Made by a program: the position numbers and the translations under genes
The notes under the pieces: model-generated
The model's database searches: none
The model's input: the letters and a program-made list of their open reading frames with translations, nothing else
Told to the model about the DNA's origin: nothing
Part shown: piece by piece, positions 1,100 to 38,800 of the stretch
Layout: each line of letters opens with the position of its first letter
How positions within the stretch are numbered: position 1 is the first letter of the stretch
DNA from: a virus
Lineage: Duplodnaviria; Heunggongvirae; Uroviricota; Caudoviricetes
DNA: 44,575 nucleotides
Direction: 5' to 3' (one strand)
Virus record (IMG/VR): IMGVR_UViG_2537561980_000012

Positions 1100-2437
1100 C
1101 ATAAGCGCTAACTTAAGGGTTGAACCATCTGAAGAATGCGACGCCTCGGTGCCTCGTTAAGACGATGCCTCGCGTTCTTCAATTGCGTTTTGTAGGCTGT
1201 CAGGGATACTGTCCCACGAATGGCCACCTGTAAGCTCCAGATGACCATTTTTGTTATTCTCCACAACGAGTTAGTTCTTCTTTTCGGATCCGGCACTTCT
1301 GGGGGGGAAATCCAGCGATGGCTGGATTATGTCGTCAATTAAAAATGCGGCGAGTAGATTAGCAAATATCCACGCTTTCGCGAGTTCAGGTTCCTTTGCA
1401 CGCAAAGCATCCAGGTGCAGCAAACTTTTGAGCCGCTTAAAAGCCAGTTCAATTTGCCATCGCAGACGGTAACAATCAGCCACTTGCTCTGCTGAATATT
1501 CATCTTCCGGTAATGATGTTAGCAATAGCACATGGCCCGCTGCTTCCAGCGTTTCCGCCTGAACTACTCGTCCTTTTCGACGATTCTCGCTGAGCAGTCG
1601 GGTTTTACTGATTAATGCTTTTTCGGGAGGAAGTGATACGGCAATGAGACGTGCCGGAAAGGGAGCTCCGGCTTTTTTATTACCTGAATTGCCTATCATT
1701 ACAGTGGTTTCACCGTTCTTACCGCAATCCAGCCCGCGCAGAAAACCCATCATGTCAAAGCGCATTCCTTCTGCAGTTAACCAGCGCAATCCTCGCCAGT
1801 GAACCCGGACGATATAATCAGCTTCTCCAAAAGCAAGTGAGCGGATACATTCGGGACGCGAACCGAATCCCGGTCAGCAATGCGTATCTCGTCTGCCGTT
1901 TGCGCAAATCGGTCCAGCCGTTCAGCGTCTCTGCTGTCGGTTAGCTCAAAATCAGTGAACTGACAGGTATGAGGATCATATCCCATATGTAGTCGCCATT
2001 CAGCGCTGCCGCCCCCGGGCGCACTGATTGCTGTTCCATCGACAAGACGCAATCTCTTTCCGCTTGTACAACCCGTAACTGCGGCGCGTACAGCAAGTGT
2101 TTGTGCGGCAAGTATGCCAAACCAGTCGGCGGCATTCCGCAGCCGCTTCAGGAGAGCCACGTCAGATAATGTTGCAACGTCATGGAGCTGAGCCCATGCA
2201 GTGACTTCACGTAATGACATCCCCCCGGGGCCGTAAGCCAGCCCCAGACGTAGCAGAGTTGCAGCATCACGAATTTCGCGGCGGCGGGTTAGAGCCCCGG
2301 CATTACGTGCCGAAGTATCCAGTTCTTCGGGCTTACCAATATGGGCCAGAATTGCTGACCAGTTATCGTGAGAGTAATTCATCGGCACGTTAAATCATAT
2401 CAGGCGTAATACCACAACCCTTAAGTTAGCGCTTATG
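1100..2437 (-). mobile_element. IS186 insertion sequence (IS4 family), 1338 bp
   Basis: 23-bp terminal inverted repeats cataagcgctaacttaagggttg (1100-1122) and its reverse complement (2415-2437); length equals canonical IS186; internal ORFs match IS186 transposase. Confidence 0.95.
1271..2382 (-). pseudogene. insL: IS186 transposase, split by a 1-nt deletion in a G/C run (plus 1869-1871)
   Basis: Two ORFs (203 aa, 172 aa) together reproduce the IS186 transposase as I recall it ('MNYSHDNWSAILAHIGKPEEL...', '...RWLTAEGMRFDMMGFLRGL...'); adding one G in 'gaccgggattcgg' restores 'ADRGFGSRPE...HWRGLRWLTAEG'. Confidence 0.9.
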
Positions 2438-2447
2438 GGATAAATCC
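2438..2447. repeat. IS186 target-site duplication, right copy (ggataaatcc)
   Basis: Direct repeat of 1090-1099 immediately outside the right IR. Confidence 0.85.
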
Positions 2448-2525
2448 CCGCTAACGTCAGGCATTGTTAATTTAACCTCAACTTATAGAAAAGTATAGTT
2501 TTAAATCATGTAGTTATGTCGCCAT

Positions 2526-2744
2526 TTAAATCGGCAAACCCACCTGTTTAAATTTATGAGGATGCGGCTGAACCGGATTTGACTCTTTTGGCGTTGCAAT
2601 CGAACGAACAAAAGTTTCATGGGTAACAAAAGTATGGCTGCAGTTAATGTTCTGGCACTGGTTGTAACGCTCTTTGGTCAATGAAGATACCTGAAAACTG
2701 CTGCGAGTATGGGCGGCACTTCCACACAGTGGGCAAATCATCAT
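2526..2744 (-). CDS. ogr: Late-gene transcription activator, Ogr/Delta/186-B zinc-finger family (start at 'MMICPLCG')
   Basis: 'CPLCGSAAHTRSS...KERYNQCQNINCSHTF' matches P2 Ogr 'CPLCQHAAHARTS...KERYHQCQNVNCSATF'; sits after gene D as in P2. Confidence 0.85.
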   Translation of the reverse strand: MMICPLCGSAAHTRSSFQVSSLTKERYNQCQNINCSHTFVTHETFVRSIATPKESNPVQPHPHKFKQVGLPI

Positions 2745-2834
2745 TTTTCGAGTTCTCCCCATTTTTGCTAAATTCACAATAATGATATCGCATTATTCCA
2801 TTTTTCAAACTTAAAAGTTCTCCATTGTAAAGAA

Positions 2835-3935
2835 TCATTCCATTTCGAGATCATCAACCTTCACTTCAAGCTCAAGACTGGTCGTAAAACCATTATCCGG
2901 GCTGACGGTATGTGTCAGAGTCGTAATGGTCCATTCCGCATCATCTATCGGCTGTTTAAAGCCACTGACTTTCACTGGCATTTCCGTGTAGAGATCTGCC
3001 CGCCCTTCCGCCAGTTGTAGCGAGAATGACGCAACGCCGCGTTGCAGGCGTTCCCACTGCATTTTCGCTGCCCGTTCGGCGTTACTCCGATTGGCATAGG
3101 TGCGATTGAGTACCAGCACGTTTTCATCCGTACCCACCAGGTAATCGCCCTGCTTCGCTTCCGGCTCTTTCTTCTGATTCTTCGTTCTGCGCTTACGCTT
3201 CACCGTAGTGCTTTCTTTCTTCGCGGGTTCGCGGGTATGCAACCAGCTGGCAATTACGCCCGTGTAGGCTCCGCGATCTGCCAGGGTAAAGCGGTGACTG
3301 TCGCCGTCCTTGCGTGTGATAGTGATCACCGGCAGTGGTTTACCGCTGGCGCTTTTACCCTGTCCCTGCCGGATGAATAACAGATTGCCATTTTTCACCG
3401 ACGCAATAGCACCGTACTGGCGCGCCAGCCGCATCAGAAAACTGCCGTCACTCTCATTGGTCTGGTCTATATGTTCCACGGGCTTATCCGACAGGTCTTT
3501 ACCCAGTGCCATCTTCAGCTTATGCCGCGAGGCTATTTCCTTCACCACTTCCCCAACGGTGGTCTTGTGCCACGACTTTTCACGGCGGGTATTCAGCGTT
3601 TCACGAAAATCAGCACTTCGCGCCCGGATAGTCAGGCGGTCCGGTGCGCCAGTGTGTTCAATCTCGTCCACCGTGAATGCCCCTTTAGGGAAAAGCGGCT
3701 GCCCCTTCCAGCCCAGCGCCAGCGTAATGACCGCACCACGGCGCGGCAGCACGATTTTTCCGTCGGCGTCGTCCAGCTCCAGATCAAGCTGGTCCGCTTC
3801 AAAGCCCCGATTGTCCGTCAGAGTCAAACTCATCAGGCGGTTATCCAGCACAGTGTTGATATCCCTGCCCTCAATACTGATGCTGAATGCGGGAGTTTTG
3901 TTGCCTTTGTTAAGCAGTTCAGAGCTGAAATTCAC
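2835..3935 (-). CDS. D: Tail protein D (late control gene D)
   Basis: 366 aa, P2 gpD-like; position between U and ogr. Confidence 0.9.
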   Translation of the reverse strand: MNFSSELLNKGNKTPAFSISIEGRDINTVLDNRLMSLTLTDNRGFEADQLDLELDDADGKIVLPRRGAVITLALGWKGQPLFPKGAFTVDEIEHTGAPDRLTIRARSADFRETLNTRREKSWHKTTVGEVVKEIASRHKLKMALGKDLSDKPVEHIDQTNESDGSFLMRLARQYGAIASVKNGNLLFIRQGQGKSASGKPLPVITITRKDGDSHRFTLADRGAYTGVIASWLHTREPAKKESTTVKRKRRTKNQKKEPEAKQGDYLVGTDENVLVLNRTYANRSNAERAAKMQWERLQRGVASFSLQLAEGRADLYTEMPVKVSGFKQPIDDAEWTITTLTHTVSPDNGFTTSLELEVKVDDLEME

Positions 3936-7400: not shown

Positions 7401-7491
7401 CTTTCGAACTGGCCTGTGCAGCACGGAATGGGCGGGTGAGTTTGTCAACCGCATTAAGAATGACCTGCAGGCGCAGGTTATTATCACTCAT
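4414..7491 (-). CDS. T: Tail tape measure protein
   Basis: 1025 aa, coiled-coil N-terminal half and Ala/Gly/Leu-rich hydrophobic repeats; downstream of E/E'. Confidence 0.9.
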   Translation of the reverse strand: MSDNNLRLQVILNAVDKLTRPFRAAQASSKELAGAIQNTRNSLKELNKQAGRIDEFRKTRSQLAITANNLNAAREEAAKLATQFAATNRPTAAQAKLFSQAKTRVQELQQTYNGLLGAVQRQRQALKESGIDTRQLSSAQRELKKNAEETRQALEGQQKALKRLGEQQARMNAAREQYSRRLEVRDRIAGAGATTTAAGLAMGAPVMAAVKSYTSMEDAMKGVAKQVNGLRDDNGNRTARFYEMQDAIKAASEQLPMENGAVDFAALVEGGARMNVANPDDSWEDQKRDLLAFASTAAKAATAFELPADELSESLGKIAQLYKIPTRNIEQLGDALNYLDDNAMSKGADIIDVMQRLGGVADRLDYRKAAVLGSTFLTLGAAPEVAASAANAMVRELSIATMQSKSFFEGMNLLKLNPEVIEKQMTKDAMGTIQRVLEKVNALPQDKRLSAMTMLFGKEFGDDAAKLANNLPELQRQLKLTAGNDALGSMQKESDINKDSLSAQWLLVKTGAQNTFSSLGETLRQPLMDILYTVKSITGALRRWVEANPELTGTLMKVAAVVAAVTVGLGTLVVALAAVLGPLAVIRLGFSVLGIKTLPSVTAAVTRTSSALSWLAGAPLALLRRGLASSGNAAGLLTAPLSSLRRTASLTGNVLKTVVGVPVALLRSGLSGLRAVAVMFMNPLAALRGGLAAAGAVLRVLASGPLAMLRVALYAISGLLGALLSPIGLVVTALAGVALVVWKYWQPITAFLAGVVEGFKAAAGPISAAFEPLKPVFQWIGDKVQALWGWFTDLLTPVKSTSAELQSAAAMGRRFGEALAEGLNMVMHPLDSLKSGVSWLLEKLGIVSKEAAKAKLPERVTRQQPATVNADGKVMMPSGGFPSWGYGFAGMYDSGGYIPRGQFGIVGENGPEIVNGPANVTSRRNTAALAAVVAGMMGVAAAPAELPPLHPLALPAKGGEAMVSRAATVPPVHRIEAPTQIIIQTQPGQSAQDIAREVARQLDERERRLKAKARSNYSDQGGYDA

Positions 7492-7920
7492 CGTTGGCCC
7501 CGCTTCTCTGAATCGCTTTATACCGCCATTCCAGCACTTCGGTCAGCGGCATAACGTCAGTAACGGATGGCGGCCAGTGAAAGATGGTGGCGATATCAGC
7601 CACCAGATCGTCAACCGTCAGGCTGTCGGTAAACCGGCAAGTACCGACTTCTTCAACAAAAAAGTGACAACCTCAACCGACATAGCGGTGAGATCTGCCG
7701 GGTCCATCTCTGCAATTTCCTGTGCAGTCAGTGCCGGGCTGGAGATGCGGGGGATCACGGTCATCATCGCGTTCACATCCATATCCATAATAGCCTGCAG
7801 GCGTGTACCGCGCAGTGCACCGGACTGCGGTTTACGCAGCACAATTTCGGTGATTTCCGTTTTACCGCGCTTGATAGGGGTATCCAGTTGAATGGTCTTT
7901 TCAGTCTGCTTATCGCTCAT
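7484..7920 (-). CDS. E': Tail assembly chaperone E+E' made by programmed -1 ribosomal frameshift
   Basis: Slippery T_TTT_TTG in zero-frame phase (plus 7657-7663); the -1 frame stays open for 57 codons and ends at TGA (7484-7486) overlapping the T start codon, as in P2. Confidence 0.7.
7618..7920 (-). CDS. E: Tail assembly chaperone E
   Basis: 100 aa gpE-like, upstream of T; contains slippery heptamer near its 3' end. Confidence 0.85.
   Translation of the reverse strand: MSDKQTEKTIQLDTPIKRGKTEITEIVLRKPQSGALRGTRLQAIMDMDVNAMMTVIPRISSPALTAQEIAEMDPADLTAMSVEVVTFLLKKSVLAGLPTA
7657..7663 (-). promoter_or_regulatory. -1 programmed frameshift slippery heptamer (T TTT TTG) for E/E'
   Basis: Heptamer in phase with the E reading frame; conserved mechanism in P2/lambda tail chaperones. 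Confidence 0.7.
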
Positions 7921-7974
7921 TTTTCTGTCCTGTAAATTGGGTTCTGGCGCGGAATCCCGCGCCGTTCAGATACA

Positions 7975-8499: not shown

Positions 8500-9671
8500 T
8501 TACGCGCTGACCTGGCTGGAGAAATTCACCAGGTACTGATCGGTGATGCGCTGACGCAGCATCAGGTTTTCAAGTGGCGGCACTGGTGTGTAGTCGTAGT
8601 CGATGGTGAGTTTTCCAGCTTTCAGAGTGTCTTTGTCGTTCACCGACTCATCCAGCCAGCAATCGCCACCAATGAGATAGCCCTGACTGATCAGGCTGCG
8701 CATTTTGGCGCGGATACCTTCGATAATGTCGCGGGCCAGCGACGGATTCAGCGGTTTGTCGACCGCCCACATTGGCGCTTCTGCCATCGTGTCCATCAGC
8801 ACCTGCGCCGTGCGGGTGTAGTTTTCGAAGGCAAAGAGTGGGTCATCACTCAGGCAGCGGGAACCCCAGAAGCGAAAGCCGTCTTTGCGGATAAGTGTGG
8901 TAACATCGTTCTGGTTAAGCAGTCCCGCATCAGTTGCCGGGTCCTGCAGATCCCAGAACACATCAGCAGAAATTCCGGTGACACCGTTCACGCCCACGTT
9001 GGACAGGCTTTTGTGCCACCCTGTCTGCTCATCAATTTTGGCACGCAGACCAAGCGCACGGGCGGTGGCATATGCCGTTGCGTCGGCATTCAGCACCGTG
9101 TCCCAGCCAGTAAAGTCAGGCCAGATCAGCATCCCTTCACGCTGACTGAAGTTTTCACGGTAAGTGATCGCCTCCTGCACCGTCTTGCAGCCATACGCTG
9201 ACAGGTAAGCAAACCCACGCAGGCTTTGCGCCACGCCCAGCAACTCAGTAGCAACGGCTTTATTATCGTGCCCCGGCACGCCGAGAATGCGCGGTTTAAC
9301 ACCGAGCTGTGACTGGGCAGATAACAGGGCTTTCATACCAGTTTTTTACCTTCAGCAGTCACTGCGCCGATGATATTGGTCGTGGTTTCTTCTTCCGTTT
9401 CACCCTGCGGCACACGCACAACAACGGTCACGGGTTTTGCCTGGTCAGCGATGGCATCCAGCGAACGGGCCAGCGTACCGGATTCACCCGCCTTACCGCT
9501 GGCAGTAAGCACATCAGTGATCAGCACGGGTTTATTAAGAGGGAACATTTTTGCATCGGCATCATCGCCCGTGCAGACCATGCCCACGATGGCGGTGCTC
9601 ACCGTGGTAATGGATCGAGTGCCTTCGTTGACTTCAACAACGCGCACTCCGTGGTGGTAATCCTGAGCCAT
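8500..9671 (-). CDS. FI: Contractile tail sheath protein FI, interrupted by a 1-nt deletion in a T6/A6 run (plus 9342-9347)
   Basis: Two ORFs (112 + 278 aa) are colinear with P2 FI; adding one A gives '...[29 protein letters not shown]', matching P2 '...[24 protein letters not shown]'. Confidence 0.85.
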
Positions 9672-9777: not shown

Positions 9778-10191
9778 TTATCTGCTTGCAGGGAAAACAG
9801 GCCAAATAATATCAGGTGCGGTGCTGGTATTTGTTGCCGTCACAGCCTCGATATAATCCAGCACAACGTTAAGTCGGGTAGTTTCCTCTTGCGTCAGTTT
9901 GCGCCCGGCCTGCAGCTTTAACTGAATCACGCTGATATTGGCCATTGCTGCGTCTAACAGCGACTGTTTTTTCTGTTCAGCGTCAGCTACCAGTTCATCA
10001 TGAGAACGTTCCTGAGTGGGTGGTGCAGTAAATCCCCCGTCTGAATAAACCCAGCCGATTCCGGGCTGCTCACTGATATCAGAAATATTAATGAGCTGCT
10101 GATTATCCGGCACTGTGAATTCAGCCTCGCCATCCCAGACAATGACATTCACAACCATCCCATTTTCAATAACTGCATATGACGTATTCAT
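9778..10191 (-). CDS. G: Tail fibre assembly protein (chaperone)
   Basis: 137 aa from ATG at 10189-10191, which overlaps the H stop as TAATG; position after H as in P2. Confidence 0.8.
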   Translation of the reverse strand: MNTSYAVIENGMVVNVIVWDGEAEFTVPDNQQLINISDISEQPGIGWVYSDGGFTAPPTQERSHDELVADAEQKKQSLLDAAMANISVIQLKLQAGRKLTQEETTRLNVVLDYIEAVTATNTSTAPDIIWPVFPASR

Positions 10192-12110
10192 TATGCAAAC
10201 TCCTCGATAATACAAATCCCTGAAGCGCCTTTCCCGCCCGTCATACTGGTTCCGCTATAACCGGCATCGTATGCGCCACCTCCGCCTGAACCATATGCTT
10301 TACCGATAACACCACCGCCAGCGCCTGCACGTCCACCGCCGCCCCAGTGCGATGTTCCGCCTTCACCGCTGACGCTGATATTTCCGGACTGACCGTCGCC
10401 TCCATCTCCACCAGTGATGCGGATATCGCCAGTACTCGGCACACCTCCGTTACCGCCGTTTGTGTTTGTAACACCCGCTTTCCCGCCACCTTCGCCACCA
10501 GGAGCAATTAACGATGCGAATACGCTATTCCCGCCCCTGGTGCCGTTCGTCGCACTAACACCACCGGCCCCACCTGCGCCGATAGTGACTGGATAACTAT
10601 TCTGTGTCGGGGTCATTATTGAAATTATTGTTCCACCGGCCCCACCGCCAGCACCGAAAAACGTTTCATTATTGGATGCAGCCTTGCAGCCGCCCCCTCC
10701 GCCACCGCCGCCCGTTATTGTGACCCTGATCCGTTTTGTTCCTGGCGTCGGGGTGTATGTACCTGATGAGGTGAAAACCCGGGTATTCAGCCAGCGTCCA
10801 ACGTATCCACTTGCATCGCTCAGACCAAGATATTGAATAACCGCCTGTGTGCTTGCTTTAGCCAGAATATTCCGTCCAACGTTAGTCAGGGTTGTCAGGC
10901 TGGCTGTATCATTCCCCGTAAAATACGGAAGTTTGTCTGCCGCAGTGGCAAGGCCTGCCAGTGCGGTCAGTGTGGCGTCGGCAGGTTGTTTTCCATTGGC
11001 AAGGTCATATACAGCCTTCACGGCTTTTGGTGTGGCAGCCTGCGTTTCTGACGTGCTGTTAGTGGCGCTGCTGAGTTGCACGGTACCTTTTACCGTCAGT
11101 GAAGCTGCAGGCACATCCGATATCTGGCTCCACGGGTGCGTGTGACTGACAGGTGCCTTACCTGCTGCAAGGTCATATGCCGCCTTCACTGCCTTTGGTG
11201 TGGCAGCCTGCGTTTCTGACGTGCTGTTAGTGGCGCTGCTGAGTTGCACGGTGCCTTTTACCGTCAGTGAAGCTGCAGGCACATCCGTTATCTGATTCCA
11301 CGGGTGTGTGTGACTGACAGGTGCCTTACCTGCTGCAAGGTCATATACAGCCTTCACTGCCTTTGGAGTGGCAGCCTGCGTTTCTGATGTGCTGTTAGTG
11401 GCGCTGCTGAGTTGCACAGTGCCTTTTACCGTCAGCGAGGCTGCAGGTACACCTGTTATCTGATTCCACGGGTGTGTGTGACTGGCGGATGCTTTACCTG
11501 CTGCAAGATCATATGCAGCCTTCACAGCCTTCGGTGTTGCGGCCAGTATTTCGGATTCACTGTTGGTCGCACTGCTTAACTGAGTAAAACCTTTTGCAGT
11601 CAGCGAGGCGTCCGGGTGACGTCGTGACTGTTCGTGCTCTGATATTTTGTCATCCACATACTTGCGGGTTGCCAGCACTACAGCAGGGTCGATTTTCAGG
11701 ATGATATTGTCCGTACTACTGGTAATCAGCACCATGCGCACGGTCTGGGTACGCCCACTGCCTTCAGCCAGTTGCGGCTTATAGCTTTCCGGGCAGTTAC
11801 CCACGGCAATCAATGCCCCGGACTCATCAAACAAGCCCACTTCACGTATCCACCAACCGCCCTCGTTTTCAGGGATCACCTGTTCAGCAATAATCTGGCT
11901 GCTGTTCTGCGGGTCGATATAGAGCATATTCAGCGCAGCCCGGCGTTTCTCATTTACCAGTGCTGTCTGCTTTGCGCCCGGCGTTGGTAATGTTCCGCCG
12001 CCATCGCCGACCGCCATATGGGTAATTTTTAAAGGCACACCGAGCGCGGCGGCGCTGGCAAGTTTCGCCGCGCCAATATCCGTCAGCAGGGTATAAAATT
12101 TTGTGCTCAT
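10191..12110 (-). CDS. H: Tail fibre protein H with internal tandem repeats and Gly-rich C-terminal domain
   Basis: N-terminus 'MSTKFYTLLTDIGAAKLA' like P2 H; 52-aa unit '...SHTHPWNQIT.VPAASLTVKGTVQLSSATNSTSETQAATPKAVKA.YDLAAGKAP.' repeated about 4 times. Confidence 0.9.
   Translation of the reverse strand: MSTKFYTLLTDIGAAKLASAAALGVPLKITHMAVGDGGGTLPTPGAKQTALVNEKRRAALNMLYIDPQNSSQIIAEQVIPENEGGWWIREVGLFDESGALIAVGNCPESYKPQLAEGSGRTQTVRMVLITSSTDNIILKIDPAVVLATRKYVDDKISEHEQSRRHPDASLTAKGFTQLSSATNSESEILAATPKAVKAAYDLAAGKASASHTHPWNQITGVPAASLTVKGTVQLSSATNSTSETQAATPKAVKAVYDLAAGKAPVSHTHPWNQITDVPAASLTVKGTVQLSSATNSTSETQAATPKAVKAAYDLAAGKAPVSHTHPWSQISDVPAASLTVKGTVQLSSATNSTSETQAATPKAVKAVYDLANGKQPADATLTALAGLATAADKLPYFTGNDTASLTTLTNVGRNILAKASTQAVIQYLGLSDASGYVGRWLNTRVFTSSGTYTPTPGTKRIRVTITGGGGGGGGCKAASNNETFFGAGGGAGGTIISIMTPTQNSYPVTIGAGGAGGVSATNGTRGGNSVFASLIAPGGEGGGKAGVTNTNGGNGGVPSTGDIRITGGDGGDGQSGNISVSGEGGTSHWGGGGRAGAGGGVIGKAYGSGGGGAYDAGYSGTSMTGGKGASGICIIEEFA
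10990..11600. repeat. Coding tandem repeats (about 156-bp unit, roughly 3.5 copies) inside tail fibre gene H
   Basis: Near-identical 156-bp blocks starting around 11150, 11306 and 11462 with single-base differences. Confidence 0.8.
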
Positions 12111-23374: not shown

Positions 23375-23896
23375 TCAGTTAATCAGTTTATTTAATGACT
23401 TAGACCACTTCTGTCCCAAATCATCAATATCAAAATCACCATCTCGCTGCTGCCATTTAAAAACTAAGGCTATAAGTTCACTCTTGAGGATTCTTTTATA
23501 ATAATCCTTAGATTTTAATTGCTCAAGTATATGTTCACCAACCTCAGCAAGCTTTCTATGATTTAATTCTGACAGATCTCGATGCAAATGGTTAACTGAT
23601 TTATACAAAGTATTTCCTTCAGTACGAGAAATATCAATACCTTTATCTTCAAACCATTGTGAATCAAGCCAAACCAAATCTATCGTAGCTGGCTCTGACA
23701 TCGTGGTGGCAAGGGCAACAATAATTTTCTCTACCGATTCATCTTGAAAATCGATAGAGTCAGAAACCCAAACTGACAAGGTGTTATTAGAGGTCCTTGT
23801 GCAACCTGTTATCGCGTCTGCGGATATATTGTCAGGTGCTCTACCTTTATTACATTCCCATTTACTATGGGATATTTTACGCAATAAATATGTCAT
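23375..23896 (-). CDS. Hypothetical protein, third gene of AT-rich cargo operon (173 aa)
   Basis: ATG overlaps the upstream stop as TAATG; low GC; no recognisable motif. Confidence 0.7.
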   Translation of the reverse strand: MTYLLRKISHSKWECNKGRAPDNISADAITGCTRTSNNTLSVWVSDSIDFQDESVEKIIVALATTMSEPATIDLVWLDSQWFEDKGIDISRTEGNTLYKSVNHLHRDLSELNHRKLAEVGEHILEQLKSKDYYKRILKSELIALVFKWQQRDGDFDIDDLGQKWSKSLNKLIN

Positions 23897-24543
23897 TATA
23901 GACTTCTCAAATATCCTATAACTGCTTCTTTATATTCTTCCACCCAATCAGCATCAAATTTCCTCATTCTTTCAAGGACTGGAATAAATGATTTTTCCCC
24001 CCAAGACTCAACTGCACGGATCGCTGCCTCAAATATAAGTTCATTCTCAAGAGAACAAACTCCCATAATCATAGCGTCAGCTTTATTACCTAACCATTCA
24101 TATTCAATAGTCGATGCAAAATTAATGAAGTTCTTTACATGTTGATCATTCATTCTGTACAATTGTACCCATGTCCTTTGAAAGGACTCTTGGAATAAAT
24201 CCTGATTTTTATCATACAAGAACTCCATGTAAATCTGTGTCTTGCTTATCTCGCCTTCAATGTAATCTTCTGAACATGTTAACTCAATTAGTCTAGAGGT
24301 ACATTTTGAAACCTGAATTTCAAAGTTCTGCTTAGTTGACGAACCTTGATTTATTGACTCAGTCTCTAATTGAAAGCCACCATTTGTTTTGCTATGTGAC
24401 AGCTCATTTCTTTTAATATCAGCGTAAATGATATTGTTACCATCATAATAATCAGAAAATGCACCTATTGAACTTACCCCATTTTTAAACTTAGGTAAGC
24501 CAAAAGGCTTTTCATCACTTATTATAAAACTATTCTTTACCAT
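23896..24543 (-). CDS. Hypothetical protein, second gene of AT-rich cargo operon (215 aa)
   Basis: Starts 9 nt after the upstream stop with 'aggtga' RBS; no recognisable motif. Confidence 0.7.
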   Translation of the reverse strand: MVKNSFIISDEKPFGLPKFKNGVSSIGAFSDYYDGNNIIYADIKRNELSHSKTNGGFQLETESINQGSSTKQNFEIQVSKCTSRLIELTCSEDYIEGEISKTQIYMEFLYDKNQDLFQESFQRTWVQLYRMNDQHVKNFINFASTIEYEWLGNKADAMIMGVCSLENELIFEAAIRAVESWGEKSFIPVLERMRKFDADWVEEYKEAVIGYLRSL

Positions 24544-24552
24544 AGCATCACC

Positions 24553-25248
24553 TTACAGAGAAGTGTAGCGTTGTAAATTATCAATAGTTTTAAGATTGTC
24601 CTGACACAATAACTCTAGCACGCGGATATATTCATCCCAACCAAACCGCATATATCCATTTTGAGGAAGAGTATTAGTATCAGTTTCAAATAATACGCAA
24701 TCACTTGGCATACCATTATTCAAAAATGGAGCTGAAATTTCAGCGCGTCTAATTGTACTAATACTATTAATTTCTTCCTGATACTCTTCAATATTTTTCC
24801 TTACAGCTATACGATTGTCCCACTCAAATGGATTAACACCTTTATAGGTAAACAAAGCATTGTAAAGCGAAAAGTAAACAGATTCATCCCCTTGATAGAT
24901 ACGTGAATTCAGAACAGCTATCCTATTTCCTTTTTTCATCGGAAATACGTTTTGTAGTTCCCTAGATATAGATAGAACCATTTCTGAAAACGCTTGAGGT
25001 TCCCCCCCCAAACCATTAAAAATGATTCCATGGCTAGGAAACTCGACTCTTACTGTTTGATTGGTATCTACCATGATAAGAATTTGCTTTTTCTCACCAG
25101 TGATGGCATTAATCTCCTGACCAAAAGTAGGTACAAATCCAAATTTTCCAATCTTATCAAGCATAGATCCAATAGTTAGTGTATTTGGAACTATATCATT
25201 ATTATTTGTGAAAAAATTAATCTGATGCGTCTGTTCAATCAATTTCAT
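24553..25248 (-). CDS. Hypothetical protein, first gene of AT-rich cargo operon (231 aa)
   Basis: ATG start with AGGAG 6 nt upstream; no recognisable motif. Confidence 0.7.
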   Translation of the reverse strand: MKLIEQTHQINFFTNNNDIVPNTLTIGSMLDKIGKFGFVPTFGQEINAITGEKKQILIMVDTNQTVRVEFPSHGIIFNGLGGEPQAFSEMVLSISRELQNVFPMKKGNRIAVLNSRIYQGDESVYFSLYNALFTYKGVNPFEWDNRIAVRKNIEEYQEEINSISTIRRAEISAPFLNNGMPSDCVLFETDTNTLPQNGYMRFGWDEYIRVLELLCQDNLKTIDNLQRYTSL

Positions 25249-26204: not shown

Positions 26205-28618
26205 TTAATACAGGTTCCGCCACTGATCATCTTCCTGCAAACGCTGGCTCCGATAGAAGATACGCAGGCCTGCTCCTGACGGAATACTGCCTCCGCGAAG
26301 GAGTAAATCGACCTCTTTCTCGCTGCCATCAAATCCTCTGGACTTCAGCTCATACACGAGCTGCAGTCGCTGATGGTCTGTAATTCGCTGTTTGTAGTCT
26401 TTACGCCGTTTCGGTTTCACCAGGCATAACCTTGCTGCCAGTTCCCGGCGCTCTTTTTTGCTCATACTGTGCAGGTAATCGTGCAACTCCTTGTCATCCA
26501 TGCTGGTAATGTCCGTTCTGGGGTCCCCATCAGCTGATTTATCTTTCTCCTGTTGGTTCAAATTTTCAGCAAGGGGACAGTTATTGCCACGAGTCCAAGG
26601 GGCGCAAGCGCCCTGGTCGGCTGCCGCCTCCTGAACGTCAACGGCTTTACGAACCATTTTCCACTTCACTGCATGAGTGCAGATCTTGCCCTCTGCAATG
26701 GGTGACCAGATGCCATAAATACGAATACCGTGATCGCCATAGGCGGTCGGCTCTTCGTTGATTTCATAAGCGGTTCTGATGAGGTGATATTTACGGGGAA
26801 CCAGTACGCCGCCCTGCTTCATGATGTAGGTGGCAAAGCAACCAGCATCAGCTGCAGCCAGAATGGCATCAAGGCGCTGGTTATCCAGTACCGGCGCACC
26901 TGCTTTTTTGTCACCCTGTTGCCTTGCCGCCTGACCAGCCAGCAATCGCAGTTCACGGTAAGCCTGACGCCCCGGAATGCCAAAGAAGCGGAATTGCTGA
27001 ACACGATGCAGAGACGCCCAGGCATTAACGTATTCAGCGTTATCACGCAGAGATTTACCCGTTTCCTTGCTGATCTCGCCAGCCAGACCACGCCCGTCAA
27101 TGTTCTTACTGATATATTTCGCGATGTAGCTTGTCGGCGTTCCTTTGCGCGGGTTAATCAACTCAGACTTAAAGCGCGGCCCAGTGTTATTGCCCAGCTC
27201 CTCGCGGTCTTCACGGATGGCAAACTTACGCAGTAATGCAGTGATGGCGCGGCGGCTTTTTTGCGCATAAAACACAACAGGTGCCAGTGAACTGTACCGT
27301 CATGATGCGGCTCAGCCACCCGCACGCCATACCAGCGCAATCCGGCTTTGTGCATCGCCTTACGAAATGCAGCAAACATGCCGACCAGATAGTCGCTGCT
27401 TTGTCTTACCGTCGAGTTTGTCCAGGTCGGGTTGGGTCTGCCGTTATTGAGCGTGGAATGGAAACGCGACGGACAGGTGATAGTGTAGAAAACGGCGCAG
27501 TCACCGCGCATTTCCGCGATAAGCTCCAGACCTTTAACACAGGCCATCATCTCATTGCGGCGATGCGCCGGGTTGCTGCTGCTGGCGTTTACCACATCTT
27601 CCATATCCAGCGTGTCGCCGTCTTCGTTCACCAGTTCATGAGAACGGAAAAACTCCAGCGACTTACGGCGCTGCTCACGTTTATGCATCACGGCTTCATA
27701 GCTGACATAGGGGGATGCTTTTTTGCTGACCAGGCAGACAGCACGCAACTGCTCTTCCCGCCATTCGCAACGCATCTTCCATAATTTCCGATACCACCAG
27801 TCGGCACACAACATACGCGCCAGCGAACCCGGAATGAGTTCATAGGGCACGGGTTTACGGCGGTTTCTTTTCCGACGGAGTTGCTCAAACGCAGGCGGAA
27901 TAACATCCAGACGCAGGGTTTCCGCTGCCACCTTTTCCCATGTTTTGCGGATTTCTTCTGGCTTAACGTCATCGGTGGCATACAAATCACCACAAGCGGC
28001 ATCAAGGCACATGCTCATATGCGCAGCGACAAGGGTGGACAGGCGCTTCACCTGATCCTGACTCATTTCAGGCAGGATAAGCAGGCCATCCAGCCCTTCA
28101 TGGCTTGCCATAAAGCGAAAAGAAGTGGATAGCTGACAGTCGCGGACATGCTCCAGTCGTTCCAGACATGGCTTAATCGTCTCACGCAAATAGCGGGAAT
28201 AAGCCTTTGGCCTGCCCAGGCTGCTGAAATATTCAATACGTTGCATCAGCGGCTTGCTGATATGGGAAGGCTGGGCGTTGACGTCAGCCAGAATGACCAT
28301 GTCCGGATTAAAACGCTGCTGCTCATGCGCCAGCTTTGCCCGGCTAATGAGCTTATCCTGCTCCATTTCGCGCTGGACAGGATCACGGGATTCATTAAAG
28401 AAATAACGCTCCCAGACCTGATCACTCAGTGCCTCGCGGCGCAGTTGTTCCTGCTCGTTATCGGCAGCGTACAGAGTGATCAGGTTTGAAAGTGCAGAAA
28501 CCGGCGCAACTTCCGCCGGGTCCAGATAAGGGTTAATGGCCTTTTTTGGGCTGTTCCATGAGAATGCTGCGGCGACCTCGTTAAAGCCGCTGCAGTTGTT
28601 CATATCAGCATGGCTCAT
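26205..28618 (-). CDS. A: Replication initiation protein A (rolling-circle HUH endonuclease), interrupted by a 1-nt deletion in a T6/A6 run (plus 27257-27262)
   Basis: '[17 protein letters not shown]' then, after a frame change, '[12 protein letters not shown]...[12 protein letters not shown]', colinear with P2 A; adding one A in 'cgcaaaaaagcc' restores the frame. Confidence 0.85.
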
Positions 28619-30338: not shown

Positions 30339-30360
30339 AATTCATATTCCCAAAACGCAA

Positions 30361-30752
30361 CTATCGCTCTTTGTTCTTACGGTAACGCTCAAGAGGAGAT
30401 ATATTTTTTCGTATCATCTCTTTAACCTGCTCTCCCCGTAAAAACGTCCCATCCTTTAGCGTGAAAAAGTAACTGCCATCGCCCGACAACGACGGATAAC
30501 AACAGAGCAAATCATCTTCAGATACTGAATAACTCTCCCCTCTGTAACGAAACTGATAAACCACTTCACTTTCCGCTGCATACATTTTGACTTTCTTCGT
30601 ATCCCCGTGGTCAATTCAGACAGCAATTCATCTTGTGAACGGCACGGATGCCAGCGTTTACCATCCTCACCCATGATCCAGCCGTGACCGTAGTGCATTG
30701 CCGGGCTTTGTTTTACCAGCAGCGATGCAAATGATGGTTCTTTCGTCAGCAT
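30361..30752 (-). CDS. Hypothetical early protein, apparently frameshifted at a C4/G4 run (plus 30603-30606)
   Basis: Two overlapping ORFs; adding one G in 'acggggata' joins 'MLTKEPSFASLLVKQ...ELTTG' to 'DTKKVKMYAAESEVVYQF...' as one ~130-aa ORF; the unjoined tail is Cys/Arg-rich and looks non-coding. Confidence 0.5.
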
Positions 30753-31269: not shown

Positions 31270-31384
31270 GCTGCCCCCTTAGAAAGTTCCCATAATTGAA
31301 CTTACTTACCAACAATGACGCGGAAGTTGGAATGTCCGAGGGATTCACGGACCTGATCAGTTTTGTACATCAGATAACGCAGAC

Positions 31385-31543
31385 TTACGCGGCCTTTGTT
31401 TTTTCTTTCTTGACCATGTACTTAGCAAGTTGACCATGGTGAATTTTTTGGTAAACAGAGCCGCGGGAAATGCCCTCCCACTCTGCGAACTCTGCAGGTG
31501 TTGCCATCTCTTTTGGTACACGAATTGAAATATCAGTACTCAT
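31385..31543 (-). CDS. apl: Apl/Cox-like excisionase and repressor (52 aa as read; possibly truncated by a homopolymer indel)
   Basis: Not in the ORF track (<60 aa); HTH-like 'ATPAEFAEWEGISRGSVYQKIHHGQL'; first gene divergent from cI; A6 run near its 3' end. Confidence 0.5.
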   Translation of the reverse strand: MSTDISIRVPKEMATPAEFAEWEGISRGSVYQKIHHGQLAKYMVKKEKTKAA

Positions 31544-31645: not shown

Positions 31646-31664
31646 TGTCAAATGGAGATTACCA

Positions 31665-32297: not shown

Positions 32298-32299
32298 AC

Positions 32300-33316: not shown

Positions 33317-33632
33317 AGTAACTTATGAAAATAAACTCAAATTATTTACAAATATAATATTCAGCAGGTTATCCATTCTTATTTAACTCTTCAGACTGAG
33401 ATTAGATTTTATTTATAGAATAAGATAATTTCATATCACAAAAAACCTGTAAGCCCTCATCTTTGTTGTATAAAAACATAAAAGATGCCATATTTAAAAA
33501 AGTAGAAAAGCATTGCAATGCAACATTAAAAATAAACCAATAAAAACCAGTCATTAGAAAATGAAAAAAAAACAAAAACATTTTTTATCAAAGCTTCAGT
33601 CTGACTACTAGTTGGACTCTGCAATTAACTAT

Positions 33633-33662
33633 CAAGATGATCAATATTTATTGATCATCTTG
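33633..33662. repeat. 30-bp near-perfect palindrome containing two GATC sites
   Basis: 'caagatgatcaata tt tattgatcatcttg', 14-bp arms; 34 nt downstream of the deaminase gene stop. Confidence 0.6.
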
Positions 33663-33695
33663 AAGTTGCCCTCAGGAAAGATGAGTATAATATTT

Positions 33696-35438
33696 CTACT
33701 CAAGAAGATATTCTAACTCATCTTTTATCGGGATAACTTGCTCATAAAGTCGGTGATATGACTTCCCAATTGCGCCTCTGAATTGTATTAACTTTGGTGG
33801 CTTGTTACCTATATTAATAATATGGTCTTGAGCTATACCTGGGTAGGGATCAATAAATACAATTTCAGATATACCTAACTGATAAGCTTTTTTCGCACAC
33901 AGCTCACAGGGACTGGCAGTTGTATATAACCTCCCCCCCTGAACGCCAATGCCACCATATTTTGCAAGTTGTAAAAATGCGTTTTCCTCAGCATGTAATG
34001 CACGTGTATGAACTTGATTACCTTTTTTATCTTTATCAAGATCATTATGTATATCTTTAAAACAATAAGATAAGTTCCTGCCTCTATAAATATCACCAGT
34101 TTTATCTATCGCCCTAAAATTTAATAGTTTCTCATTAGCTTTAATTCTGAAAGAACTATTATTTCTCTCATAATGACTGTACACTTTTTCATCAAAGTCG
34201 TTCATTAGGCCATCTAGCGATCTCATAGAGCAAGGAATCTGACCGTTGGCGACATCATTCCAACCCACTGATTTTATTGAATTTTCACCATCAGTTACTA
34301 CAGCTCCCACCTGTCTAGATATACAACCAGAGTTTAATTTTACCGTATACGCAACTTGCATAACCCTTTCCATTGCAGTAGGTGTTATCAGACCAGGATG
34401 CTTCATCAGTGCGATGTACCACGCTAATTGTGCTTTTAAAATATTGTCATTATCAAATTCATTTTTTGGGTTAAAAATGTGTATATCTGATAGTTCAATG
34501 CATTTAGTTACATTTGGATTAGTGAGATGTTTGTAAGAGTTATCACCTTTACCTGACTCTACAGAATCTATTTCCTCTATCTGCTTTTCAGAAAACTTAT
34601 GTAGTTTCCGCAAATAGTTTGTTCGATGTTCATCTGGGGCATTTATTGACATTAAATGAAATGCAGAATATCTATCCTTAAAAAATTTTGCTTCATATGG
34701 ATTTCTAATAGCATCTATGACAATTAATGCGTTATCTCTTTTGCTTTTTCTTATTAATTTAATAACCCTATTAATAGTTTCCGGCAAATGAAAAACAGAT
34801 TTAGGTATAAACTCTTTATCTTCAAAATCGACTTCAATACGCCCACGGCGTCTAATTGACTTACCTGCTAACTGATAGACTGAAACATATAAATTTGAGT
34901 TTATCGCATTTAGTTCAGCTTTGAATTCCTTAGTAAATTTTCTAACTAACCTCAAAATTGATATAAATTTATTAATCGTTTTTTCATTAAGCTTCAATTC
35001 ACTATTATGATCAAGCAAATTCTCAATTACATTTTTAAATCTTGTTAAAATGAGATTATCTGAAAATACACCAAAAGTTAATACATTATCTAAATGCTCT
35101 TTACTGATAGATTTATTAGATGATAGAATAAACTCAGAAGCTTCTTCAACTGTTAACATCAAAAGATACGCTGAGATTAGGTCACTCACCTTAATTGAGT
35201 AAAAATTTTCCCAGTGATTTTCTGCGAATTTTTTAACTATATTATAACGATGGACATCCAATCCCTTGTAAAAACCCTGTAATTTACTTACATCAGGGAA
35301 GACTGTTTTTTCGTTTTCAAGAATATTAGCTGTTGTTGTGCAACCAGAACCAGTTCGACCTGTCAAACCGACTAAAATAAACTGCCCATTTTCAAGGAAA
35401 AGCTCACTAACGAATTTTTTTCTTTCATCACGTCCCAC
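33696..35438 (-). CDS. P-loop nucleotide kinase fused to cytidine/dCMP deaminase (AvcD / defensive dCTP-deaminase type)
   Basis: N-terminal Walker-A-like 'GLTGRTGSGCTTT'; C-terminal zinc-deaminase motifs 'HAEENAF' and 'PCELCAKKA'. Very low GC. ORF as given starts at GTG; an ATG at 35426-35428 becomes in-frame if the T7 run at 35415-35421 is one base short. Confidence 0.75.
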   Translation of the reverse strand: MGRDERKKFVSELFLENGQFILVGLTGRTGSGCTTTANILENEKTVFPDVSKLQGFYKGLDVHRYNIVKKFAENHWENFYSIKVSDLISAYLLMLTVEEASEFILSSNKSISKEHLDNVLTFGVFSDNLILTRFKNVIENLLDHNSELKLNEKTINKFISILRLVRKFTKEFKAELNAINSNLYVSVYQLAGKSIRRRGRIEVDFEDKEFIPKSVFHLPETINRVIKLIRKSKRDNALIVIDAIRNPYEAKFFKDRYSAFHLMSINAPDEHRTNYLRKLHKFSEKQIEEIDSVESGKGDNSYKHLTNPNVTKCIELSDIHIFNPKNEFDNDNILKAQLAWYIALMKHPGLITPTAMERVMQVAYTVKLNSGCISRQVGAVVTDGENSIKSVGWNDVANGQIPCSMRSLDGLMNDFDEKVYSHYERNNSSFRIKANEKLLNFRAIDKTGDIYRGRNLSYCFKDIHNDLDKDKKGNQVHTRALHAEENAFLQLAKYGGIGVQGGRLYTTASPCELCAKKAYQLGISEIVFIDPYPGIAQDHIINIGNKPPKLIQFRGAIGKSYHRLYEQVIPIKDELEYLLE

Positions 35439-35623
35439 TTATGAATGTAAGAATATTCAACATATTAATTATAATTTATTAACTCATTTTGTTCTAGATA
35501 CTTGATGTAATGGCGGCACTTTGGCGACGGAGCATTAAAAACGCGTAAGACGAGCAAATACAACAAAACACTAACACATTGTTTTTAAATATAAATAGCT
35601 GTTTTTACTATACTAAAAATGGT

Positions 35624-35661
35624 ATGTAGGAATTTCGGACGCGGGTTCAACTCCCGCCAGC
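35624..35661 (+). other. 38-nt copy of the ssrA (tmRNA) 3' end: attachment-site remnant
   Basis: 'atgtaggaatttcggacgcgggttcaactcccgccagc' matches the E. coli ssrA 3' end as I recall it but lacks the terminal 'tccacca' and all upstream ssrA sequence. Confidence 0.8.
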
Positions 35662-35823
35662 CAATCATGATTGGACGGTATAAGGACAACACCAATAAAA
35701 ACAGTAAGTTAGCAGTCTCAGCAGGACACCGACCAGACGGTGAAGAGACATAAAAGGATACGCAAAGGAGCCGCGGCTCCTGGTGACATGAAAGCCCACA
35801 GATGTGGGCTTTTTCGTTGATGG

Positions 35824-38800
35824 TCAGAACGACCAGTTCACACCAGCTACCCCGTTCCACGGGGATTCCACACCGGCACCATGGCTATACCCCACCCCAA
35901 GATGCCCGCTTAACGTACTGCTGAATGAGGCTTTAATACCTGCCTGGTATATTCCACGTCTGCCCGACAAATCATTGACGAAATTACCGTCACTATTCAC
36001 TTTCACCCGGTTATCATCGACAAATTCTTTGCGCACAGCCGCCTTCAGCCACGGCTCAACTTCCATACCGTTCCCCAGACGCATGTTGTAACTCAGCGTT
36101 GCACCCAGTTCACGATATAAACTGCGGGTATCGACTGATTTCGATTCCATGCCATTGGATAAATGATATTCAGGGTTATCAGCGGTGAACCCCCGTTAAC
36201 GATGCATACGGCGTCAGGTTCCAGTTACCATCGGTAAATCGCATCCCGGTTTCAATGTGACCGCCCAGCCCGTAGCTGCGATAACTGCCGTTGGCGGCTC
36301 CACCGCTGCCAACCGTGGAGTCGCGAGCTTCGGTACCTGCTAATACCAATAAATTACCGCCATTTTCCAGCAACATATTGGTCGCTAAATTGCCGGAAAT
36401 GGAAAAAGTGCCGTACTGGTGAGTACCGCTGATTTCAATACCGTTAGCCGTGCTCGTCTGGAGAGCGGCACCGCTGTTCTGGACGATATCTGTCGCTTTG
36501 CCATTATCGTTAACTGTCAGCGTACCGCCTTCATTGATCTTTGTTTTTATTGCCTCTCCGTTAGCTGAAACTGTTTGTATTCCGCCGTCGTTAATCGTTG
36601 TCTCATTCGCCACCCCCTCGACGATTTGTTCGCCGCCGGTGAGCGTCGTGCCTGTCGCAGTGGCTTTTGTTTTGACGATCTCCCGTCCGCCCGTATTGAC
36701 CTGTGTTTTGTCAGAAGAGGTGTCTGACTCCACGGTTAACACGCCGCCATTTGCCAGCAGGATATTGTTCGCCGCACCCTGCTCGATGCTGAACGCGACG
36801 CCATCCGCGCGTGTTCCTGTGACCCGCGTCGCCCTGGTGGTTGCAACCAAAGCGCCCTGGCTACTCTGCTGTATCCCCGTTGCGCTGCCTTTCTCCCGCA
36901 CATCGAGTGTGCCGCCGTCATTAAGCACCGAGTTTTCAGCCAGACCGCCCTCATTAACTACCTGTGAACACCCATTAATAATGGAACCTTCCGCTATCCC
37001 GTTTGCCATAATTTGTTGTAGGCCAGAGACGATATCGGTATTGATCGCCTTACCATAATTCTGAACGGTTTGTGTGCCGCCATTGATGTGCGTTTTGTCA
37101 GTTGACCCACCATCAACAATTTGTTCACCACTTTCAATATTTGCCTCAGTGGCTAAACCATATACCGTTTGCTTGCCACCTTTGATATTTGCTTTATCAG
37201 AAGTGGCACTGGCATATATTGTTTGGGTGCCAGCACTATTAAGTACAGTGCCAACATCTTTTCCATAAACATCCATTTTGCCGTTGGCATTAATAATCGT
37301 ATCAACTGCCCGGGAACCAGTGACGACTGTTAATGAGCCAGCGTTTTCCAGCACTACATTTTTAGCTTCTGAATTCCTGATGTAGAAAGCATCACCATAA
37401 CTGTTGGTTCCTTCGATAAGGGTTCCGGAAGTTGTGGAAGCAATTAATGCGCCGCCGGATTGTTGCTCAACATGCTTAGCCTCACCACCGTCCTGAACCT
37501 CCAGAACGCCACCATTATTAAGTCTGGTGGTATCTGTTTTAGCCTCCTTCTGGACAATCAGCTTACCGCCAGCATCAACGGTAGTATTTTTCGCCGAGGT
37601 TTTAGCCACTACCGTCAGTTCGCCGGTATTTTCCAGCACAACATAATTAGCCTCCCCTCCGGTAATAGTGAAGTGAGAGAGCTTGTTGTATCCTTCAATA
37701 TCAGTCCCTGCGCCCGTGTTGGCAACTAAAGCACTGCCCGTCTCCTGGTTAACCCCATGTGCAATACCGCCGGTATAGACAATCAGCGAGCCTCCGGCGC
37801 TAATATTGCTGCCAATTGCCGTACCATCTTTCTCAACAACTTGCTGGCTCCCGGAGGATATAATTGTTGTGTCAGCTTTCCCACCGCTTTTGATATTTTG
37901 CGTTCCGCTGTTGATATTGGTGCCTGTGGCTATGCCATAATTATTAAGATTCTGTGTGCCACCATTAATTATGGTATTTGTCGCGTTTCCTGCAACATCC
38001 ATAACCCCGCCATTATCTATTCGGGTCGCATCAGCTTTAGCATTCGTTAAAACTGACATTGTTCCTTTATCTTTAATAATCGTCTTGTTTGCGGAATGAG
38101 ATACTTCTAAATGGCCTCCATTTTCCAGCAACACATTGTCTTCCACTTTATTGTGGATGGAGAATGCACCTTCACTATTCGTACCGCTCACCGTCGTACC
38201 GTTAGTGTTTGTTTTTAAAATTGCACCATCGTGCTGGGTAACATTTGTTGCCGTACCACCACTAACATCAAGCACGCCACCGGAATAAACTTCAATAACA
38301 TCCGAGGTGCTGGTGTTATTAACAATTTGCGTGCCACCAGAATAGATCTGCGTAATTTTTGCCGTTGACTTACTATTCAGAGACTGAGTTCCGCCTTCAA
38401 TCGTCGTGTCCAGCGCACGGCTCTCATATACTCTTTGCTCACCGCCATTTTTAATGGTTGTTGTTTCTACTGTGCTCTGTTCAACATACTGTCGACCACC
38501 ATTTATGGTTGTGTTCGTTGCCAGACTTCCTTGTACTACGTCCTGAGAGCCAGACTTATTTATCGTTGTACCATCAGCATGCCCTTGAACTTTTACTATC
38601 TGGCTACCACCATCAATGAGTATTCCATTCGCACTCCCTCCCTCTACGCGTGAAGCACCGCCCTTAATTGTCGTTCCATTGCTGATACCCCCTTTATAAA
38701 CGTCCTGATTGCCACTCTCGATTGTCGTACCTGTGGAAATACCCCCGTCATGAATTGACTGTCTGCCACCGTTAATGGTTGTATTATTAGCCTGCCCCAC

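Follow-up and report, generated by a model that had tools for sequence, protein, structure and literature searches.

Probable homopolymer miscalls at five sites of a P2-like prophage region in an Escherichia coli draft genome

The reading that we favour, with a probability of about 0.85, is that five one-base deletions in the DNA analysed here are consensus errors, that the prophage they accompany is probably complete, that a C5 run in the neighbouring ypjA gene is real and that the fil gene is normal. The evidence comes from comparison with finished genomes of the same lineage, from sister drafts that are nearly free of SNPs and from core DNA on the same contig. The features concerned are listed in Table 1.

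Table 1. Features discussed in the text, with positions in the whole analysed stretch
Feature	Position	Strand	Run or site	State
IS186/IS421 copy	1101..2436	-	C3, 1869-1871	Transposase split; canonical IS186 has C4
E/E+E' slippery heptamer	7663-7657	-	T TTT TTG, at a T6 run	In phase
Tail sheath gene (FI homologue)	8500..9671	-	T6, 9342-9347	Split after residue 110; intact form has T7
Replication endonuclease gpA	26205..28618	-	T missing between 27255 and 27256; T6, 27257-27262	Frameshift after residue 454
orf74	30361-30585			Carried by an inserted module
fil (98 aa)	30456..30752	-	C4, 30603-30606	Unbroken
apl/cox-like regulator (80 aa when intact)	31302..31543	-	T6, 31399-31404	Frameshift after residue 48; intact form has T7
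Intergenic run	33564..33572	+	A9	A8 in several sister drafts
Anti-phage dCTP deaminase	33696..35438	-	T7, 35415-35421	T7 instead of T8, within the first 5 codons
ypjA/EhaD autotransporter remnant	35824..39208	-	C5, 36190-36194	+1 frameshift; C4 in K-12
ypjA deletion junction	36297-36309			In-frame 1320-bp deletion

The window and its finished relatives

The window, by which we mean the whole stretch of 44,575 nucleotides, belongs to the draft assembly of E. coli EPECa12, which dates from about 2012, and matches its contig AKNH01000046.1 at 100%. It contains a P2-like prophage adjoining the ssrA and ypjA region. Three independent finished genomes of the same lineage, CV839-06, ETEC1747 and ETEC1731, are 99.95% identical to it, and their genes are intact at the sheath, gpA, apl and deaminase sites. 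When the tail-fibre repeats are excluded, only 4 SNPs and 4 deletions of one base separate the window from all three; a fifth private deletion, in IS186, was scored against the canonical element and not against these relatives. The prophage of CV839-06, a P2-like member of the Peduoviridae located beside ssrA, is 99.95% identical in gene order and sequence from ogr to int and has the same flanks: an RT gene and ssrA adjoin one end, the dCTP deaminase and ypjA the other end. Unlike CV839-06, which lacks this copy of IS186/IS421, the window has the element inserted between ogr and the RT module, has a tail fibre with one 168-bp repeat unit fewer, in frame, and carries the one-base deletions. Collapse of the tail-fibre repeat by the assembler was considered and rejected, as the exact 639-aa protein is present on 57 contigs.

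At each of the four sites that can be compared with these relatives, the allele of the window was found in none of the finished E. coli genomes that carry the region, including near-identical assemblies of high quality. For the sheath, 84 finished records at 99% identity or more yielded no exact match to the window allele, and the best 30 of the 84 all carry T7. For gpA the comparable number is 47 records, again with no exact match, and the best 20 of the 47 all possess the extra T, as do the sister drafts DEC7A and AFEB01. T7 is present in apl in all 13 near-identical finished genomes, and the deaminase has T8 in 20 of the 20 that carry the gene. Contig counts (the Logan look-up matches exact proteins only) present a similar picture, with 743 contigs for the intact sheath protein as against 15 for its broken fragment, and 346 for the intact gpA as against 1 for its fragment, from EPECa12 only. 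The broken N-terminal fragment of the IS186 transposase, 201 aa long, occurs on only 6 contigs, and the missing C is the sole difference from canonical IS186 over the whole element. In the deaminase the short run removes the ATG start, so that the 577-aa protein (468 contigs) becomes a 580-aa ORF read from an upstream GTG (6 contigs). The NCBI accessions listed for the 580-aa form all belong to the EGX, EHV and EIQ series of about 2011-2012, apart from one RefSeq WP entry, and the T7 allele was also found in SRR27829859, a run from 2024. Carriers of the short apl run are mostly drafts of 2011-2013, together with two single-contig assemblies of more than 5 Mb that have many other split genes; among them are assemblies of long-read style that also have split int, cII and gpA genes.

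The private indels are clustered at runs far beyond chance. Homopolymers at least 6 long account for 1% of the window, yet 3 of the 5 private indels lie inside them and a fourth touches one. There is also a steep dependence on run length, with 3 of the 13 runs whose true length is at least 7 affected, as against about 1 of 65 6-mers. The first-pass annotation had proposed that genes were broken exactly at seven runs, two of them as possible cases, and had placed all seven runs correctly. A one-base difference in length from the reference alleles is indeed found at 6 of the 7 sites; the fil site has no indel. The reading frame of gpA is broken as proposed, but not within the run: the alignment, GG-CTTTTTT in the window against GGTCTTTTTT, places the missing T one base before it. 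The suggestion that both insertions and deletions occur does not hold, as all five private lesions are deletions and the sole insertion, in ypjA, is a real allele.

Sister drafts and core DNA

Sister drafts that are 0-1 SNP apart nevertheless carry different subsets of these lesions. DEC7E has the sheath T6; DEC7C has apl T6 together with A9 and deaminase T8; AFEB01 combines apl T6 with A8 and deaminase T7; and DEC7A has apl T7, A8 and deaminase T7, as well as a private change from T8 to T7 in ypjCB and three stray insertions. These subsets are not tree-like and would require homoplasy and an indel-to-SNP ratio greater than 1 if they had been inherited. The intergenic A9 thus adds one more run of unstable length to those in these assemblies. 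Contigs assembled by Logan from SRR063724, probably the reads of EPECa12, are identical to the window and reproduce T6, T7 and A9; one of them begins exactly at the A9 run, which is no more than suggestive of miscalled lengths. The sheath T6 is common to EPECa12 and DEC7E, which are 100% identical across 17 kb, and this shared allele could equally be an inherited real mutation.

Lesions of the same class are present at similar density in core DNA of the same assembly, where 8.7 kb of chromosome on the same contig contain two more T-run deletions and one SNP. Thus all seven lesions, five in the window and two in core DNA, are deletions. One of the core deletions frameshifts the C-terminal tail of SmpB, and the exact 154-aa variant that results was found on 47 contigs. 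The accessions listed for this variant belong to the EGI, EGW, EHV and EHW series, the two source names shown are EPECa12 and Shigella boydii 3594-74, and these accessions and sources share the naming style 'ssrA-binding protein'. The accession series and the naming suggest that a single submitter produced the carriers in one era, as drafts of unrelated E. coli and Shigella strains, and the three GenBank accessions listed for the 580-aa deaminase are of that era as well. Recurrence of the smpB lesion in unrelated drafts, apparently products of a shared pipeline, points to a systematic sequencing error.

This pattern resembles that of known homopolymer consensus errors in several respects. Errors of flow-based platforms (454 and Ion Torrent) and of uncorrected long reads are likewise single-base events in or beside runs, rise steeply with run length and are biased toward under-calling; moreover, the same site, smpB, fails repeatedly in unrelated genomes, and the lesions are absent from finished ones. 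Less typical of such errors are the position of the gpA lesion beside its run and the occurrence of the IS186 lesion in a run of only 4. A chemistry that under-calls long homopolymers would account for consensus errors of C4 to C3 in IS186, T7 to T6 in the sheath gene and in apl, T8 to T7 in the deaminase, and loss of the T beside T6 in gpA. For that era, pyrosequencing is presumably the most likely platform of the EPECa12 assembly; a search of the literature for the platform used for EPECa12, the DEC7 strains and S. boydii 3594-74 yielded nothing usable. In the actual strain the five affected genes would then most likely be intact, and the P2-like prophage would probably be complete, like that of the near-identical finished genomes.

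Frame changes that are not errors

The same window holds frame changes of other kinds. The C5 run in ypjA, which the first-pass annotation had counted among its errors, is a genuine inherited frameshift and an instance of real decay at a homopolymer, because it recurs in hundreds of finished assemblies and on 1000 contigs or more. It is shared by the three finished relatives and by 324 finished records at 99% identity or more, and the separate 108-aa C-terminal ORF that it leaves occurs on at least 1000 contigs. This is the only lesion found in common among independent high-quality assemblies, as is expected of a pseudogene. Other ypjA/EhaD pseudogenes of E. coli likewise combine the C5 frameshift with a separate 108-aa beta-barrel ORF, and the RefSeq annotation of the relatives, 'incomplete; missing C-terminus', is consistent with the window. 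In K-12, by contrast, the gene (1526 aa) is intact, with a C4 run and a further 1320 bp of passenger sequence.

The fil site is of a different nature. The length there is the same in six other genomes and phages, alignment with CV839-06 and three other phage or plasmid genomes revealed no indel, and the G4 run arose by substitution. The 98-aa Fil ORF occurs on 401 contigs and the 74-aa ORF on 252, so that both are common full-length proteins. A mosaic junction lies at about 30620, where a module of about 282 bp carrying orf74 has been inserted. The fil gene is thus normal, with no frameshift, and lies at a recombination junction that explains its altered C-terminus. An ancient or programmed frameshift joining fil to orf74 was rejected, as the fused product adds no coverage of the Fil domain (in both frames Pfam matches positions 1-45 of 56); it is also disfavoured by related phages, which lack the orf74 module and have a Fil of 66 aa.

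A programmed -1 frameshift is a further genuine change of frame. The window resembles P2 in its tail chaperone genes E/E+E', with a slippery heptamer that is kept in all relatives, and P2 reportedly uses this motif (Christie et al. 2002). The heptamer is not among the seven suspected sites and, unlike E/E+E', none of the seven has a canonical slippery heptamer in phase.

Alternative explanations and implications

If the five deletions were real, they would reflect replication slippage at runs in the EPECa12/DEC7 clone, where a defective prophage and a defence gene would be decaying. Slippage prefers the same runs, and a lysogen can do without its prophage and defence genes, so that real frameshifts there would be tolerated. 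The ypjA lesion shows that real homopolymer frameshifts exist in this window, the sheath T6 is common to DEC7E, and apl T6 and deaminase T7 are common to some sister strains. The sheath T6 has also been found on diverged haplotypes in other samples, for example GCA_020148745.1, in which the prophage occupies a different attachment site and the other genes are unbroken, so that at least one otherwise clean assembly carries it. If the data behind GCA_020148745.1 or SRR27829859 are high-accuracy short reads, the short alleles exist in nature; many other carriers, however, are visibly error-prone assemblies. Under decay, nevertheless, 53 kb would have gained 7 indels but about 5 SNPs, alleles would have reverted or arisen more than once in strains 0-1 SNP apart, and the conserved SmpB tail would have suffered a frameshift that is found as well in unrelated strains of the same accession era and naming. 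It must also contend with the zero occurrences of the four non-IS alleles in finished genomes and with a gpA lesion seen in one assembly only, and we regard it as unlikely.

The non-tree-like combinations of alleles in near-clonal strains, and the recurrence of the same short alleles across many samples and haplotypes, would also be expected if the T and A runs were hypermutable contingency tracts, with run length varying between sub-populations and each assembly catching a different majority state. Correction of the frame at an A6 run would even yield the exact wild-type sheath sequence. It is scarcely to be expected, though, that the sheath, apl and deaminase runs are fast-switching tracts that turn P2-like prophages and the neighbouring defence gene on and off in clonal populations, with the sheath T6 perhaps partly rescued by -1 slippage on AAA AAA. 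In repair-proficient E. coli, tracts of 6-8 nt lack the length needed for a high rate of switching, the long state is uniform in the finished genomes, the assemblies of several carriers are visibly prone to error, and intergenic runs and smpB behave in the same way, so that no functional targeting is visible; phase variation is therefore very improbable. A mismatch-repair-deficient mutator, with real homopolymer indels throughout the EPECa12 genome, would explain the high indel-to-SNP ratio, the lesions in core DNA and the fact that transitions account for 3 of the 4 private SNPs. It would not explain the identical smpB lesion in unrelated strains, nor the private sets of lesions in sister drafts with essentially zero SNP differences, and far more transitions would be expected, relative to 5 indels, than 4 in 43 kb. 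This account, too, we consider hardly credible.

Miscalling at the five sites, rather than decay, thus agrees with the absence of these alleles from finished genomes, with their non-tree-like distribution in sister drafts and with the similar lesion in core smpB. Among the cases that the first-pass annotation held to be firm errors, those of IS186, sheath and gpA stand, while ypjA is real and fil unbroken; its two possible cases, apl and the deaminase, are supported by the T7 and T8 of finished genomes. After correction the prophage is probably intact, as had been suggested.

As a whole the finding is an ordinary one, because the five sites are best read as one-base errors of an old draft, ypjA carries a widespread real frameshift and fil contains no break. 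That a frame can be restored at a homopolymer is not by itself enough to tell error from biology, because the same window holds the real ypjA lesion, the fil mosaic junction and the programmed frameshift of E/E+E'. Pseudogenes should not be called from the ORF boundaries of this draft, nor probably from those of contemporary sister drafts, and the evidence here is no ground for scoring the prophage as defective.

Five private deletions

The window belongs to contig AKNH01000046.1 in the draft genome of E. coli EPECa12, as shown by look-ups of exact proteins and by a DNA match of 100% without gaps. It was compared with three RefSeq complete genomes, those of the pig ETEC strains CV839-06, ETEC1747 and ETEC1731. 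All three match window positions 10999-44530 at ~99.95%; in CV839-06 the match extends to the left part as well. With the repetitive tail-fibre segment set aside, four SNPs (24872, 33614, 38320 and 41007) and four single-base deletions are all that separates the window from the three genomes. The lesion in the IS186 transposase brings to five the lesions, each of them a deletion, that are private to the window assembly relative to the finished genomes. The first-pass annotation placed the homopolymer runs correctly, and the IS186, sheath, apl and deaminase frames do change exactly at a run; in gpA the missing T lies beside the run. Its statement that the errors included both insertions and deletions does not hold, as no insertion was found among the private lesions.

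Features of the window and its contig (breaks confirmed by translation)
Feature	Position	Description
Sheath FI	9342-9347	T7 to T6; frame broken after residue 110/390
gpA	T absent between 27255 and 27256	GG-CTTTTTT vs GGTCTTTTTT; broken after residue 454/804
apl	31399-31404	T7 to T6; broken after residue 48/80
Deaminase	35415-35421	T8 to T7; ATG start (MKEKKF...) lost, upstream GTG used instead
IS186 transposase	1869-1871	C4 to C3; broken after residue 171/370
smpB (EPECa12)	13085-13549 of L027, the window's contig with its outside part	Outside the window; T6 to T5 frameshift; 154-aa product, last 27 residues replaced
Tail-fibre gene	10191-12110	639 aa vs 695 aa in CV839-06, ETEC1747 and ETEC1731; one 168-bp repeat unit fewer, in frame
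Extra module with orf74 (74 aa)	30339-30620	~282 bp, between fil and the DUF5347 gene, vs related phages
Reverse-transcriptase gene (257 aa) and upstream 57-aa ORF	1-915	Between ogr and ssrA
Three hypothetical genes	23375-25248	173, 215 and 231 aa; between portal gene and early region
Tail-chaperone region genes	7618-7920 and 7491-7610	Minus strand; heptamer at 7657-7663
Alpha-amylase-family gene	42752-44575	Pseudogene with internal stop in annotation of all three finished relatives

The IS186 copy (1101-2436) differs from canonical IS186 by its one missing base; it is not present in CV839-06 and has inserted in the ogr-RT intergenic region. IS186 occupies the identical site in GPEC1201. The DEC7E draft (L012, 17220-18586) has an IS186-family copy there too, of another variant (6 mismatches, 2 indels) and in opposite orientation. 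This pattern reflects either independent insertions at a hot spot or arbitrary placement of repeats in drafts. In the tail-fibre gene, collapse of a repeat during assembly was considered and ruled out; an exact-protein look-up found the 639-aa allele on 57 contigs, and the difference is therefore a real copy-number variant.

Miscalls or inherited alleles

At the four sites in sheath, gpA, apl and deaminase, the window allele was found in no finished E. coli genome. For the sheath there were 0 exact matches in 84 finished records at >=99%, the best 30 of the 84 being 202-nt T7 matches, and for gpA 0 in 47 at the same threshold, the best 20 of the 47 carrying the extra T. All 13 near-identical finished records have T7 in apl, and 20 of 20 have T8 in the deaminase. 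The gpA lesion is in no further assembly (1 contig vs 346 with the intact protein). Among the GenBank accessions listed, 3 of 3 for the 580-aa deaminase and 3 of 4 for broken sheath fragments date to the era of the window's draft. Carriers of apl T6 are mostly drafts of 2011-2013; two further carriers, both single-contig assemblies of >5 Mb, also have split int, cII and gpA genes. The platform of the window's draft was presumably the pyrosequencing of that era; searches of the literature gave no platform for it.

The sister drafts, which are 0-1 SNP from the window, contain different subsets of the short alleles. DEC7C has apl T6, A9 (the intergenic A run at 33564..33572) and deaminase T8; DEC7A has apl T7, A8 and deaminase T7; AFEB01 has apl T6, A8 and deaminase T7. 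gpA is intact in DEC7A and AFEB01, and DEC7A has in addition a private T8 to T7 deletion splitting ypjCB and three stray single-base insertions. To obtain these subsets by descent, at least one reversal would be needed, along with an indel-to-SNP ratio well above 1.

Core DNA tells the same story. Over 8.7 kb past the window on the same contig, there are two further T-run deletions, one of them that in smpB, and one SNP with respect to CV839-06. The C-terminal tail of SmpB, which is altered in EPECa12, is needed for trans-translation. The identical variant occurs on 47 contigs, E. coli and Shigella drafts among them; the accessions listed belong to the EGI, EGW, EHV and EHW series, and the source names shown, EPECa12 and Shigella boydii 3594-74, are both styled "ssrA-binding protein". 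This suggests unrelated strains from a single submitter and era, a systematic technical error being a far better fit than the repeated loss of a conserved tail from the protein. All seven lesions, the five private ones and the two core T-run deletions, are under-calls, and the lesion rate climbs steeply with true run length (3 of 13 runs of >=7 in the window, about 1 in 65 six-mers).

It is improbable that some of the short alleles were inherited in EPECa12, the most plausible candidate being sheath T6, which DEC7E has in common with the window. Sheath T6 does occur on several diverged haplotypes from other samples, one of them a 2021 assembly whose prophage is at a different attachment site with no other gene broken, and deaminase T7 appears in a 2024 run. 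Should those other samples have been sequenced with accurate short reads, short alleles would exist in nature as occasional slippage products in dispensable genes, but EPECa12 itself need not have them.

The prophages with the same sheath break are those of that 2021 assembly (L011, GCA_020148745.1, 10001-11172) and of the further loci L013-L019; all are 96-98% identical to the window across their full aligned regions, and one adjoins ybjL-ybjM-grxA. Several come from Logan assemblies in which gpD is broken as well (T5 to T4). At these loci, either an error or slippage at a single hot spot has recurred.

Sites that are not miscalls

The early gene reported as broken at 30603-30606, fil, is unbroken: the site has equal length in the three relatives and in three phage or plasmid genomes at a greater distance, and the G4 of the coding strand arises by substitution (ACGGGGATACGA vs ACGAGGAAACGG). 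Phage vB_EcoM-813R9 has an annotated "FIL protein" with which the 98-aa Fil ORF is collinear; this ORF is found unchanged on 401 contigs, the overlapping 74-aa ORF on 252. The Pfam Fil match covers positions 1-45/56 with or without artificial fusion of the two ORFs. In related phages a 66-aa Fil is followed directly by the DUF5347 gene; here the orf74 module supplants the native Fil C-terminus, with its junction at ~30620, 15 nt from the C4 run. A frameshift in fil is thus ruled out in favour of a mosaic junction.

For ypjA, also attributed to sequencing error, the opposite holds. The run at 36190-36194 is C5 in the window and C4 in K-12, and the gene has in addition an in-frame 1320-bp deletion (junction 36297-36309). 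C5 is common to all three finished relatives, and finished genomes beyond them have it in their hundreds (324 records at >=99% with 201-nt matches, genomes with intact ypjA giving 200 nt); the 108-aa beta-barrel ORF that it leaves occurs on at least 1000 contigs. The frameshift at this homopolymer is real and inherited. The reading of miscall rather than decay thus stands for IS186, sheath, gpA, apl and deaminase, fails for ypjA and is moot for fil; the window's breaks are assembly artefact plus one known pseudogene.

The internal stop in the amylase gene is common to the relatives and hence a real lesion; it is unrelated to homopolymers. The tail-chaperone gene (gpE homologue) has an in-phase slippery heptamer, T TTT TTG, close to its end, with the same sequence in all relatives. 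The heptamer matches the site at which P2 E/E+E' undergoes programmed -1 frameshifting, and the frame change at this T6 run is genuine.

Prophage layout and integrity

From an ORF listing and similarity searches, the element is a P2-like prophage of E. coli that extends from ogr (~2.5 kb) to int (~33.3 kb), flanked on one side by the reverse-transcriptase gene adjoining ssrA and on the other by the anti-phage dCTP deaminase, ypjA, ypjCB and the amylase gene. The top PADLOC match of the reverse transcriptase is retron-type RT_VI, a weak one (63 bits), and the gene may be defence cargo of the prophage. The three hypothetical genes, none with a PADLOC match, lie at a cargo hot spot of P2-like phages; the third is split in ETEC1747 by a private C8 to C7 deletion at 25002. 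With the four phage lesions corrected, every phage gene matches the CV839-06 prophage, which has no pseudogene among its structural or replication genes. Because of this match, and because the IS186 copy is intergenic and the tail fibre is one unit shorter in frame, it is reasonable, judging from the sequence, that the prophage may be intact.
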